The position numbers were made by a program. This document shows positions 6,001 to 11,347 of a stretch of DNA of 11,347 nucleotides, piece after piece. Numbering within the stretch: position 1 is the stretch's first letter; each line of letters starts with the position of its first letter. The stretch comes from a virus (Duplodnaviria > Heunggongvirae > Uroviricota > Caudoviricetes), in the IMG/VR virus record IMGVR_UViG_2713896784_000017. The stretch is one strand, 5' to 3'.

Positions 6001-9000
6001 CCAGCGCCTCATCCAGTAACAGTTCAATGGACTCAATCAGCGTCTGCAGGCACTGGGAATAATACTGCTGCTCCAGCGCCTCCACGTTGTCACTGGAAGG
6101 CGGTTGTCCCACGCCAATCTTGTAGGCCGGGACACGGAACACCGAACAGACAATTTCAGCGGTCATCTTCAGTTGTTCCACCGTCTGCGCATCCACCGGT
6201 GAAAACGTCGTGGGGTTGTATTTTGCCCCGTTGCTCAGAATGGCCGTTTTCCCCGCATTTTCGCCTGTATACCCGCTGTCCCAGTTGCTCTTCAGTTTTT
6301 TCGCATTTTCTTCCGTAATACTGCCGGGGATCTCAATCACCCCGGACGGCCTGCCGCCATTTCTGAAAAAAGACGTCGAATTTTCCTGAATATGATGCCC
6401 CTGCGTGGCCGCCAGCCCGGCGGCATACACCGGCGGCAATCCTATAAGCGGATGAAAAAAACAGTTAAACCGGTCGTGGATCACTTCCCGGGCAGGCACC
6501 GTCACCGCCTCCGTGATCCCGCAGTTCCGGTCCGGCGTGATGCGGTAGAACACCTCGCCGTCATCCGCCACCAGAGGTTCAACCCGGCTCCAGTCCAGAA
6601 TACGCAGTTCTTTGATCTGCCCCCGGGCATTACGGATTTTCAGCACCACCGTATTGCCATGACGCAGTTTGGCGTTCAGCCACAGTTCAAAAAACTGGAT
6701 GCGGTTCTGCTGGGCGTTGGGACGACGACAGAGGCGGGCAATATCCCCCCGGCGCGTTTCCCTGCGTATCCCATGCGCATCCGTCTGCATAAGACGCAGC
6801 CGCATTTTGGCGATATCCTGGGATATCAGCGAAATACATGCAAACACCGCATGAAAGGAGAGGACGGCTTCAGGATCGGCTTTCACGCCCTGCTGCCAGG
6901 CGCCGGAAAAGGGCTCAGCCACCGCCTGAAACAGGCTGGTCCAGCCCGCCTCTCTTACGTCACGTCCTGATTTCTGGTTTTTTCGGGTTCGCCGTAAAAG
7001 GTTCCACATTCGCCATGCTCCGCATCACGTTTCTTTTTCTGACCTGCCGGACGTCGCACCGTGATGTACTCCGCCTTTCCCAGGCGAACCAGCACCTCCG
7101 CACACGGCTGTGCCACATCACGGATATCCCCGGCCCGGGCATCATGCGTGCCCTGCAGATATCGGATCTTTGCCATAACCTGTTACGGGAGGCGCACGCC
7201 TCCCGTCCTCCTTATCAGACTCAGCCGCCGGACGCACTGCCGTAGTTCACTCCGGTGATCACCGCCACCGCCGCAGTACGGCGACGACGCCAGTTGATCC
7301 AGCGCTCCGCACGGATGGCCACGCTGCCTGTCTGGAACATGGAAACCAGCTCCACCGGGGACGGCGTGGTACTGTCGCCGCCCGGCTCAGACTGCATTTC
7401 CAGTGATGCCTCGCGGGACATATCCACTGCCACGCCGCCGTCATCCGCCAGATAAATATCCGGGGCATTCACCAGCACCAGCTGGTCACCCACGTACTGG
7501 GAGACAATCACCGGCAGCCCCTGGAAGGAGCCACCCAGCAGGGTCATGTCCGGGTATTCCTTCTGACCCAGCGCATTTTTACGCATGGACAGTGCCAGGG
7601 CATTGGTGCTGGACATCAGCCAGACCGCACCGGTGGGCTGCAGGTTTGCTGCCACAAACTGTCCAAACGCAGCCTCGGCATCCGCATCCGGGTTACCGGT
7701 TGATGCCGTGCCCTTCACATCATGGGTGATGGACGCCGGGGAGACATCTGCCACTGCGGCTTTTTTCGGGTCCACAAAGTCTGTATCCAGACGCGCCACC
7801 ACCGCTTCCGCCAGCGCATTACGGACCAGTGCATCAGCAGCCGGACTGGAAAAACGGATCAATTCTTCCGTCAGTACCGCAATGGCCGACACCTTCGCAT
7901 GACTGAAGGTGATGGATTCAAAATCAAACTTCGTCAGGGGTTTTGCCTTACCCTCACCCACCCAGCCGGCAGCACCGCCGGACACCTGGGCGTGCACACG
8001 GATATTGAATGGCACCTGACGAAGTGCAGGGATCCCGCCCTGACCAAATCGCCCGATAATGGTCTGCGGACGCAGGTAATCAATAAAGTCCTGTGCGTAT
8101 TCCTGATATTCAGACAGGCTGCCTGCCCACTGCGGATCCGTGGTGGTCCCCGCGCCCACTGCCGATTTCAGGACATGATGCAGACGACTGTCATCCGGAT
8201 ACTGACGACGGGCCACTTCCAGGGCTTCAGATCGGACGCCTTTAGCCGCAGCCAGCGATTTGGCAAAGCGGGCGAAGCCAATCCCCTTATCCAGTTTCTG
8301 CTCCACACGGATCACCGGCGCAGAAGCCACCGCGGCCACATTCCCGTTACCGGCCTGTTTCACCGGCTGCGCCGTGGCGGCCTTACCGGCTTCCAGTTCA
8401 CGCAGGCGCTTCAGGTGCGCATCCACCTGACGGATTTCCGCTGCGGTGTTGTCGTAATGCTCTTCCTCCTCCACATCCAGCGTGCGCCCTTCCTCTGCGG
8501 CTTTGGTCATGACCTCCTCAAGGGAGGCTGCCAGCGCTGCACGCTTGTTTTCAAAACTTTTAATCTGTTCGCCAATATTCATTATGGTCTTTTCCTTATG
8601 AAAAACGGTTGTTGACTGTGCCGCAGCGCCGGCAGAAGATGCGATTTTCACCACCGGTTTCCGGTTGCCGGACGCGGCAGAAAACGGGCGGTCGTAAGAT
8701 TTAATGGTCCGGATGGTGCATTCCGCATTCGCGGGCACGGTGACGGCAGACACCTCCATCAGTTCCCAGCGCAGAAAATGCAGTCCGCCTCCGTCCAGAA
8801 AGGTGTATTCATGGGGACGGAAGCCCACGGACAGCCCCCTGACCAGCCCGGTCTTAATGGCCGCCCAGACCTCATCCAGCCGGGCAGCCAGTTGCGACGG
8901 CATATCCGGTACGGGCTTCACCAGTGTTGCCGTGATTTCCAGCCCTTCGCTGACCCGGCGCACCGTACACTGCCCCACCGGGCGGGAATGGTCATGCTGC

Positions 9001-11347
9001 CAGAGAAACGGGATCGCACTGCCAAACTCCGCGCCCTCCGGCTCCAGGATGTCACCATCCCGATCCGGAGAAGGCGTTGACGCAATCCCGGTGATCACCC
9101 GTTCATCCTCACTGAAGGATTTCACCGTCAGCAGGGAACAGGCCCGTTTAAGAGTCACATCAGCCTCCTGAAAATAAAAAAACCGCCGCAGCGGTTCATG
9201 ATGGTTACAGTGTGAACAGGGTTATATGAAAAAAACCGCATATTCTTTCTTTTTCGGTTCCGGGTTAAGGGACATCAGGGAGACCGCATTGAACAGCGCC
9301 ATCAGCGGGTCAATTTTTCCCCGTCCACTGGCCTGTTTGGTGATAAGAATGGCGTTACCTTTAGGCTCCACCCGGGCATTGCCGACACACCAGGCCATCA
9401 GGGGCTGGTCACCATGCACCAGCACCCCTTCAGCCAGTTTGCGCTCGGTGGTTTTAATGGCCCCGCCCAGTTTCCAGCCCTGGCTTATCCCCACCACAAT
9501 TCCGTCGGGGATCCCGGCTTCCGCCAGTGAATCCAGAATCTGCCCCACCCCTGACGGGTCAATACCGATATGGTCCAGTAACTCAGCCTCATGAATGCGA
9601 CGCACATATTCCGCCACTTCCGCCGTGTCATCCCCGACACGCCGGACAATGGTCATATCTCCACAGGCAACAAGATCCTGAAACCGGGACGCCTCGCTCT
9701 TCCGTCGGACCACCGCGGTTTCATGCGCCCAGGCATGGCCCCAGCCCAGCCATTCGCGGGTTTCCCTGTCACGGCCAATCACGTACATTCCCAGCAGATC
9801 ATCCAGGCCCCCGCCGTCAATCCCCACCGTCACCACATCAGCGCGCTGCAGGATATCGTCCAGGCTGACGCGCCTGCCCTGCTGCTCCCAGAAATCCGCA
9901 CCCGCCCAGCGGTCAGAACGCAGGGCAAGACCAATTTCCACATTGGCATGTTTTGACATGAAGCCACGAAATGCTTCCTCACCAGCCTCCCGGGCTTTAC
10001 GGTACTCCCGGTACAGAAAAGCCTCATCCACCGAATAACCGAGATTCGGGTTAACCATGGCGAGGTTTTCCATCAGCAGGTGAGCCCCGCTTTCCACCAT
10101 TTCAGGAGGATGCTCAAAAATCACCGGCAGAAAGTGCGGATCATGAATTTTGCCGTCACGGACATCCCGGGCGTACTGCAGTTTCTGTCTGAACACCCCG
10201 GCTGGCGGCTCATTCGACTGGGTGGTCGTATACACCACAAACCCTTCCGGGCGGGAGGCAAGGCCGCCTATGGCTTCACGTAACATGTCCTCCGCTTTGT
10301 ACTGCTTGCCAAATAACCACAGTTCATCAATCAGCGTCCCCACGGACTTGATACCGGATACCGTATTCGGATCGGCAGCCACCACCTTCAGGGTGGTGTC
10401 CGTCACCCTGTGGGTGATGGTCCGGATATGTGTCTGCACCTGACAGAGGTCATCCAGATCATCGTCCCGTCGTACCATATCCCTGGCAGGGTTGAAGGCG
10501 TTAGCCGCCACCTCCACGGTCGGGGCCAGAATGGTGTAGCCCGCCGCCTGCCGCCAGTTCAGTAACAGCGCCGTCATCATGATCCCGGCAGCCAGCGTGG
10601 ACTTGCTGTTTTTCTTGGGGATAAGGATAAAAACTTCCTTGATATGGCGTACACCGGTCTGCGCATCGTAGGAGCCAAACAGGGCCGCCACCAGGTCAAA
10701 CACCCACTGTGCGCAGGACTCCCCGAACGTCGGGCTGCCCGGTGCATCCACAATCCGCAGTTGTTTAAAAATCGCCAGGGCATGTGCGGCCTGCTCCGGA
10801 TAAATCGGAGCCGGAATAATCGACAGCCCCTTTTTCAGGCGCTCTGCCCAGTCCGGGCAGGCCGTGCTCCACACAGGTATCATCCGTTGCCCTCATTATC
10901 ATTATTCACCACCAGGCGGGGTGGTGGTGGCACCGCAAAACGGTTAGCCGCTTTTTTCGCCGCGTCACCTTTTGCCGATTTTTTACCGGCATCCCCTTTT
11001 TTGTGGTGCGTGAACTGCGCCAGCTTATAAGCCGCATCCAGCGCCAGCCTGGGGTCGGTATTAATGTTCTCCACCAGGATCCGCCCCATGGCTTTCACCG
11101 GATCGGGAAGACCATCCTCCATATATTCAATACCAGGAGACATCACCGCGGACGGTGGCATCTCCAGATTGTTTTCGTCCGGCTGTGGTATTGCAGCCGC
11201 CTCACGGCGACGGGGTTTATCCTCCTGCTCTGATTTTTTCTGCCGGTAAACAGGAACCTCATCCACCTCCACCGTCTCGCATTGTTTACGGGCTATAAAC
11301 GCAAGCACCTCCGGATCTTTTGCCAGCTGCGAGCCTTTAACCCTGGC

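Follow-up and report, generated by a model that had tools for sequence, protein, structure and literature searches.

The question raised by this locus is whether the prohead protease and the major capsid protein of a tailed phage are made as one polypeptide and, if so, whether this polypeptide is the only product. The locus lies in a stretch of 11,347 nucleotides (hereafter the window) of the Caudoviricetes record IMGVR_UViG_2713896784_000017, for which an initial annotation had placed both proteins in one frame of 645 amino acids, without an internal stop and without giving a strand. Indeed, in the six-frame list of open reading frames (ORFs) of the window, one ORF of 645 codons spans exactly 7221..9158, but it lies on the minus strand; a plus-strand reading of the same interval was ruled out, this frame being full of stops. 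The GTG start codon at 9156..9158 (minus strand) is the first start after the upstream stop, homologues align from residue 1, and a Shine-Dalgarno (SD) sequence, AGGAGG, lies at 9164..9169 (minus strand), 5 nt before the GTG, with a duplex energy to the anti-SD of −10.3 kcal/mol. The minus-strand translation contains the peptide EEEEHYDNTAAEIRQVDAHLKRLRELEAG and ends, according to the ORF list and the translation, at the stop codon 7221..7223 (minus strand). A frame of 645 codons with two significant domain matches in the correct order is far beyond chance, and we regard it as almost certain that this is a real gene for a fused precursor. The claim of a single polypeptide stands for the full-length ORF, but it is probably not the whole story, since the capsid gene's own SD sequence and ATG are conserved inside. 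The stop codon would then be common to two predicted products.

A profile search, proposed with the initial annotation as a way to map the domain boundaries, placed Peptidase_S78 at residues 48-152, Phage_capsid at residues 386-635 and the NCBIfam model TIGR01554 at residues 204-584. The N-terminal part, residues 1-141 (8736..9158, minus strand), is a prohead serine protease domain of the MEROPS/Pfam S78 family and the HK97 gp4 type, as judged by PF04586 (34.7 bits against a gathering cut-off of 21), by an hhalign probability of 97.2% to HK97 gp4 and by an AlphaFold2 model of the full protein, built on a 47-sequence alignment, with a mean predicted local distance difference test (pLDDT) score of 75. 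In this model, a folded, beta-rich protease (residues 4-139) is followed by disorder (142-191), a helical hairpin (195-261) of two long helices (195-223, 229-261), another disordered part (265-283), short helices (293-331) and a mixed alpha/beta body up to residue 635. The protease had been expected at residues ~1-160, which is borne out by the S78 match with an intact predicted catalytic dyad, the folded part ending at residue 139. The predicted catalytic histidine, His55 (codon 8994..8996, minus strand), aligns with His65 of HK97 gp4 in hhalign and is invariant in all of the 128 fused representatives described below; the predicted catalytic serine, Ser110 (codon 8829..8831, minus strand), aligns with Ser114 (GLSVGF versus GMSVGF) and is found in 127 of them. 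When the full model was compared with the PDB by Foldseek, capsid proteins filled all 50 listed ranks, and the protease assignment rests on the profile and the catalytic residues.

The charged segment at residues ~200-260 had been described as a linker that acts as a built-in scaffold or delta domain. Its charged, helical delta/scaffold nature is well founded, but it is not a flexible linker: according to the AlphaFold2 model the real one is residues 142-192 (8583..8735, minus strand), a disordered, length-variable stretch rich in Ala, Ser, Gly and Lys, with pLDDT values of 33-40 and gap-rich, poorly conserved alignment columns. TIGR01554, major_cap_HK97, a model that includes the delta domain, matched with 78.3 bits (cut-off 27.5), positions 3-355 of the model lying on residues 204-584. 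Because this match begins at model position 3 and because the segment corresponds to the capsid N terminus in relatives with two separate genes, the charged helical segment is, on this comparison, a homologue of the delta domain found at the N terminus of HK97-type capsid proteins. As judged by TIGR01554 and the AlphaFold2 helices, the scaffold region probably reaches beyond residue 260 to about residue 331 (residues 193-~331; 8166..8582, minus strand), with a putative C-terminal boundary placed from a weak BLASTP segment. It would consist of the helical hairpin 195-261, a flexible part (262-292) and three short helices (293-331). A PHROG scan of ten minus-strand ORFs, covering the terminase up to the major tail gene, gave no match to a scaffold family, in agreement with the earlier statement that the window has no separate scaffold gene.

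Residues ~332-645 (7224..8165, minus strand) form the HK97-fold capsid body, as claimed before. This part matched PF05065, Phage_capsid, at residues 386-635 with 52.7 bits (cut-off 24.2), and the top Foldseek matches in the PDB were the HK97-fold capsids of Bxb1, D3, HK97, T5 and the gene transfer agent (GTA), with E values of 3e-14 to 1e-10 for Bxb1, D3 and HK97 and of up to 1e-9 over all five, and a target-normalised template modelling score of up to 0.75. BLASTP of the capsid part against HK97 gp5 gave nothing significant, the hhalign probability was 2.4%, and a sequence search of the PDB returned Bxb1 alone, and weakly (E 0.002). Fold and profile evidence was needed in their place. A weak BLASTP segment to gp5 (expect 15) overlays ...SDADSAGSL on ...TDPQWAGSL. 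HK97 gp5 is cleaved between K103 and S104, and the corresponding cut was compared as FNK/SLGSDADSAGSL with VLK/SAVGAGTTTDPQWAGSL. With low confidence, this predicts a cut near residues 331-337 and a mature protein of ~33 kDa.

The gene itself is well represented. Its 1938 nt are 100% identical in DNA to Enterobacteria phage 2851, where the product is called 'major head protein Gp17', and to vB_EcoS_phi330, and ~99.9% identical to YYZ-2008 ('putative major head protein/prohead proteinase') and to Stx2a_WGPS6 ('major head protein/prohead protease'). Among 5426 complete E. coli genomes, 1255 carry it, a single genome having as many as 7 places, and, with at least 80% of the query covered, it was found in 1257 E. 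coli replicons and at 2977 places overall; up to 7 copies are present in O157-type genomes. The E. coli cluster comprises ~9900 full-length member sequences at 98% identity. PHROG 617, 'major head protein' (626 positions), matched residues 1-639 over profile positions 7-626 with an E value of 3.3e-261, and because this match runs end to end, the fused architecture itself is a catalogued family. The whole window is ~96% identical to Stx1a/Stx2-converting, long-tailed lambdoid phages, and the ORF encodes the head precursor of a lambdoid prophage of the Stx type with a long tail (Pankowvirus-like). The fusion is already annotated in GenBank and caught by PHROG 617; the reading is sound and the arrangement is not new. 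Only the conserved nested start may be new, as a testable refinement and not as a new kind of system.

Homologues of 644-648 amino acids with both Pfam domains and 73-78% identity are present in Salmonella, Enterobacter, Klebsiella, Serratia, Pantoea, Kosakonia and others. When 1.84 billion representatives clustered at 50% identity were searched exhaustively, 1181 matched at E<=1e-30, from Proteobacteria and beyond; 128 of the best 150 are 600-720 amino acids long, and nearly all of these 128 align as a single segment with residues 1-640, at 38-54% identity. The representatives also include a few capsid proteins of ~460 amino acids that stand alone and start exactly at query residues 193-196. 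We then took 80 loci from different species of Gamma-, Beta- and Alphaproteobacteria and a few other phyla (37-77% identity): protease and capsid are one uninterrupted ORF in 70, two ORFs split in the linker in nine, and the last locus is cut by the end of the contig. Three database proteins (P0001, P0123 and P0132; 1079-1094 amino acids) have a terminase large-subunit domain joined to the protease-capsid protein; probably they stem from gene calls that read through a stop or from assemblies with a frameshift, and are no genuine triple fusions.

The capsid gene of the nine split loci begins with M(A/K/S)T(Y/I)xEQI..., which corresponds to MNIGEQI... at Met193 of the window protein. Since the split capsid starts coincide with Met193, the fused gene is the two-gene state minus the stop codon of the protease. 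The junctions differ between the split loci (L062, L064-L066, L068, L069, L072, L078 and L081), from an ATGA overlap, TGAgcATG and a 5-nt gap to spacers of 56-109 nt. In a neighbour-joining tree made from the capsid part, the split forms are dispersed, and at least six changes of state are counted. Fusion and fission are thus easy and apparently near-neutral, which is expected if the capsid protein would be translated from its own start in both states. The free proteases of the split loci end in a common ...PVVKL...(A)KPFVIRxIN tail, and by eye, unaligned, the linker of the window protein (PVVKI...TVFHKEKTI) resembles these C-terminal tails (PVVKL...PFVIRxIN). Judged by this resemblance, residues 142-192 would be the counterpart of the C-terminal tail of the free protease, and the PVVKL tail may be a capsid-targeting peptide kept as a linker in the fused genes.

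Is the capsid start still used in the fused gene? The in-frame ATG of Met193 (8580..8582, minus strand) is a kept capsid start and a putative nested start, since the split relatives start exactly here. It is preceded at a distance of 10 nt by an SD-like AAGGA (8593..8597, minus strand; site sequence cat-AAGGA-aaagaccata-ATG), whose energy of −6.2 kcal/mol is within the top 10% of the codon positions of the gene. The product from Met193 would have 453 amino acids and 48.2 kDa, compared with 69.0 kDa for the full-length protein. An ATG within four residues of the Met193 column is present in 63 of 71 fused genes, and many fused genes have a perfect AAGGAGG or AGGAGG 6-9 nt upstream of the internal ATG, often stronger than the SD sequence of the annotated start. 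The mean SD-anti-SD energy is −6.99 kcal/mol at the ATG of the Met193 column, −6.85 at the annotated starts and −2.29 at 913 other internal ATGs (Met193 column versus other internal ATGs, Mann-Whitney p = 1.7e-26), with a sharp peak at the site. Of 66 genes, 50 have an SD core at a spacing of 5-10 nt. This core uses all three codon registers and goes with 44 different upstream hexapeptides, which argues for conservation at the level of the nucleotides. When the seven upstream codons were resampled synonymously, the actual SD sequence was stronger than the resamples in 90% of the genes (−6.99 versus −5.40 kcal/mol, Wilcoxon p = 3e-10), whereas control positions had no bias (−2.32 versus −2.43). 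Among the loci from Enterobacterales hosts (51-77% protein identity, at which synonymous sites are expected to be largely saturated), 13 of the 14 listed, like the window itself, keep the ATG and an upstream AGGA/AAGGA, which varies in spacing and register; L013 has the AGGA core and L024 has the ATG without an AGGA/AAGGA core. In Pseudomonas phage PAJU2, the AGGAGG of the internal site has −10.8 kcal/mol, compared with −6.4 at the annotated start. From these comparisons we consider it somewhat probable that the nested start at Met193 is functional, and we lean slightly towards reading the fusion genes of the whole family as nested genes with a major delta-capsid and a minor protease-delta-capsid product.

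The model that we derive from this is as follows. In this HK97-style system, the maturation protease gene has lost its stop codon and runs in frame into the delta(scaffold)-capsid gene. Because there is no stop in the frame, a ribosome that starts at the GTG must yield the 69.0-kDa protease-linker-delta-capsid protein. Most subunits would be made as the 48-kDa delta-capsid protein from Met193, with the full-length protein as a minor, protease-bearing subunit, and the ratio of the two starts would set the dose of protease per capsid. This is the logic of lambda C/Nu3 and herpesvirus UL26/UL26.5, here possibly extended through a scaffold-fused capsid protein. According to what is seen in HK97, the capsid part of the full-length protein would co-assemble as part of the procapsid shell, protease and delta region pointing to its interior. 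The assembled His55/Ser110 protease would then remove itself, the linker and the delta region, and a cut near residues 331-337 would leave the ~33-kDa capsid protein. By this analogy, an active protease that delivers itself and a removal of the delta region are very probable. For autoproteolytic maturation, which the initial annotation had read from the arrangement, we infer the same as has been published for the 48%-identical protein of PAJU2.

The most serious alternative is that only the 645-amino-acid protein is made, so that each capsid subunit would begin with a protease of its own and be trimmed by autocatalysis; the SD sequence and ATG inside the frame would then be a relic of the ancestral two genes, or simply reflect a preference for Lys/Glu/Gly and for Met at the start of the delta region. 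This is plausible, if clearly the less probable of the two. Relics are plausible in view of the at least six changes between fused and split states, the synonymous resamples still have −5.4 kcal/mol, so that the encoded amino acids carry much of the SD signal, and, by our own estimate, the interior of a T=7 procapsid could accommodate protease and delta region on all ~415 subunits. On the other hand, a mere relic or amino acid preference does not fit well with an internal site that cannot be told apart from true starts by its SD strength or spacing, with a core that changes its codon register while the peptide varies and the nucleotide motif stays, with a synonymous choice that favours the stronger SD sequence at this site and not at control sites, or with the ATG and core kept across the Enterobacterales-host loci; moreover, relatives of the scheme in lambda, HSV-1 (herpes simplex virus 1) and HFTV1 do use nested starts.

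Several points nevertheless weigh against a nested gene with two products and a working protease. The internal SD sequence of the window is moderate (AAGGA, 10-nt spacing, 10th percentile) compared with the perfect and stronger AGGAGG at the 5′ start. The significance of the synonymous test is weak for the individual gene (median P 0.31), and the p-values are inflated because the sequences are phylogenetically related. With fused and split states interconverting this frequently, part of the signal could be inertia from recent split ancestors. The stricter equivalog model for the protease, TIGR01543, stayed below its cut-off (46.4 versus 59), and the placement of the cleavage site is a guess from the weak BLASTP segment to HK97. 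The only published reading of a homologue that we found, for PAJU2 as cited in PMC8306868, is that of a polyprotein, the citation giving no second start. Finally, no experimental data for this lineage, such as protein or ribosome-profiling data, turned up in the searchable literature; the nested start is read from the comparison of sequences. A literature search gave no virion proteomics paper for phage 2851 or YYZ-2008, and on internal starts in protease-capsid fusions it gave only the nested protease/scaffold cases; a paper on the cyclic-oligonucleotide-based antiphage signalling system (CBASS) was set aside as a precedent, as it deals with protease-scaffold and not protease-capsid fusions.

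A second alternative, that the ORF is a decaying gene of a defective prophage which is intact by chance and builds no capsids, is connected with a peculiarity of the capsid body. The family consensus has a pattern like that of the HK97 crosslink, K406-P, N611 and E618 seven residues on (compare K169/N356/E363 of HK97), although these chainmail residues are a hallmark of HK97 itself and not of the whole fold family. In the window, according to a low-confidence HK97 alignment, the set is incomplete: K406 (codon 7941-7943, minus strand) and E618 (codon 7305-7307, minus strand) are present, but the Asn position is Gly611 (codon 7326-7328, minus strand). The Gly (FQTGSVAIRAE) is shared by all eight E. 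coli entries with at least 90% identity, whereas Asn (FQTNSVAIRAE) is found in 102 of the relatives with 73-78% identity and in 111 of the 128 representatives. A change of a near-invariant residue that is restricted to the E. coli lineage could be taken as decay, as could the up to 7 gene copies in O157-type genomes; many O157 lambdoid prophages are defective. But the same sequence is present in phage records named as isolates (2851, vB_EcoS_phi330, YYZ-2008), the catalytic residues and almost all near-invariant positions of the family are intact, the ~9900 full-length members of the E. coli cluster stay at 98% identity, and the gene sits in a complete module (TerS, TerL, portal, connectors, tail), which makes decay very unlikely. 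From the sequence comparison, the E. coli Stx-prophage lineage may have lost the crosslinking Asn and build capsids without chainmail.

The last alternative, that two genes were merged by a frameshift or base-call error in the linker (~8558-8735), draws on the truly split relatives, one of which (L062, with the ATGA overlap) is, in our judgement, separated from the fused form by roughly one indel, and on masked N runs elsewhere in the window, but it has a negligible probability, as the frameshift check called for at ~8600-8700 was done by comparison and the identical frame recurs in independently sequenced phages and in the 1257 E. coli replicons, and an undivided one in the 644-648-amino-acid homologues, in the 128 long ones of the 150 representatives and in 70 of the 80 loci.

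How does the precursor gene compare with known systems? Phages 2851, YYZ-2008 and Stx2a_WGPS6 have the same flanking order (TerS-TerL-fusion-small ORF-portal-connectors-tail) and nothing of substance differs; what the window carries is one more copy of this module, whose portal gene has two runs of masked N. A relative with a published interpretation is ORF003 of Pseudomonas phage PAJU2, with 667 amino acids and 48% identity end to end, noted in its record as 'prohead protease fused capsid protein'. It shares the order TerL-fusion-small ORFs-portal and has an internal AGGAGG-ATG, but it has a different host and keeps Asn where the window has Gly611. Autocatalytic cleavage was proposed for it (Uchiyama et al. 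2009; UniProt P85500, 'capsid polyprotein'; as cited in PMC8306868). With HK97 gp4 and gp5 the window protein has in common the protease family and dyad, an N-terminal delta domain without a separate scaffold gene and the HK97 fold. In HK97, however, protease and capsid are separate genes after the portal gene, whereas here they are one ORF before it; the delta region is longer (~139 residues compared with 102), the sequence similarity of the capsid parts is very low, and Gly stands at the position equivalent to Asn356.

Nested genes of the kind considered here are established in lambda C/Nu3, HSV-1 UL26/UL26.5 and HFTV1 gp17/gp17.5 (HFTV1 preprint, doi 10.64898/2026.09.13.751334), where the protease is an N-terminal extension of a more abundant assembly protein and an in-frame internal start gives co-C-terminal products. 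The window has an SD sequence and ATG of start quality at the equivalent junction. Two products are proven in those systems and predicted for the window. Furthermore, the inner product is a free scaffold in lambda, HSV-1 and HFTV1, whereas in the window it would be scaffold plus capsid, with the protease tethered to a shell subunit. Fused protease-capsid genes have also been described in the Arthrobacter phage clusters AM/AU/AN and in Rhodococcus phage RRH1 (PMC5513430). These fusions and that of NCBIfam NF045541, 'prohead protease/major capsid protein fusion protein', have the same domain order but belong to different sequence lineages; with NF045541, whose cut-off is 525 bits, the window protein reached 54, and the match is confined to residues 48-287. 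A fusion is therefore a recognised, recurrent arrangement.

For the fusion itself, the analysis confirms the existing annotation of this gene in Stx-converting and related prophages of E. coli and, for practical purposes, rules out an artefact. If the nested start is used, annotations as 'capsid polyprotein' hide a second, probably dominant product, and the dose of protease per capsid would be set translationally, as in lambda and herpesviruses. This would be one more trait common to the HK97/herpes assembly module, and nested starts would explain the free interconversion of fused and split states. The nested start also matters for how proteomics and cryo-electron microscopy data of these phages, which are of medical relevance, are interpreted.

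Read along the minus strand, the gene order is TerS (partial), TerL, fusion gene, PHROG-829 ORF, portal, Ad1, Hc1, Neck1, tail terminator and major tail protein; the annotation of Stx2a_WGPS6 continues it into tail chaperones and the tape measure protein. The order TerL, protease-capsid, small ORF(s), portal (5228-10883, minus strand) is atypical, as in HK97 the portal gene precedes protease and capsid. Between the TerL stop and the SD sequence of the capsid gene, a terminator-like hairpin with a T run (9197-9180, minus strand; GAACCGCTGCGGCGGTTT TTTTATTTTC) was considered and rejected, being no more frequent there than in shuffled sequences. The small conserved ORF at 6955-7176 (minus strand) separates the capsid gene from the portal gene, whose start it overlaps; it belongs to PHROG 829 and has no Pfam match. 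PAJU2 has two small ORFs at the same position. A role of the PHROG 829 ORF in head assembly or decoration is possible.

The portal gene (~4500-7009, minus strand) is unusually long, with 859 amino acids in Stx2a_WGPS6 and in PHROG 2271, and the Phage_portal domain covers only residues 54-382. The C-terminal extension has, by eye, tandem repeats of ~45 amino acids (IPVPRDGRDYDP..VLQKAVNDAVANIPQPADGKSLTPDDVRPMLEQMVKEAVS), and the terminal domain (4565-4936) matched nothing in Pfam. Two masked N runs of 50 nt, at 5271-5320 and 5009-5058, interrupt the repeats in the window and break the frame; some phage records annotate two 'portal' coding sequences at this position. Further downstream, the major tail protein (2233-3018, minus strand; PHROG 158) has a C-terminal Ig-like (Hoc-like decoration) domain and also matches PHROG 2973 and PHROG 4069 at residues ~144-260.

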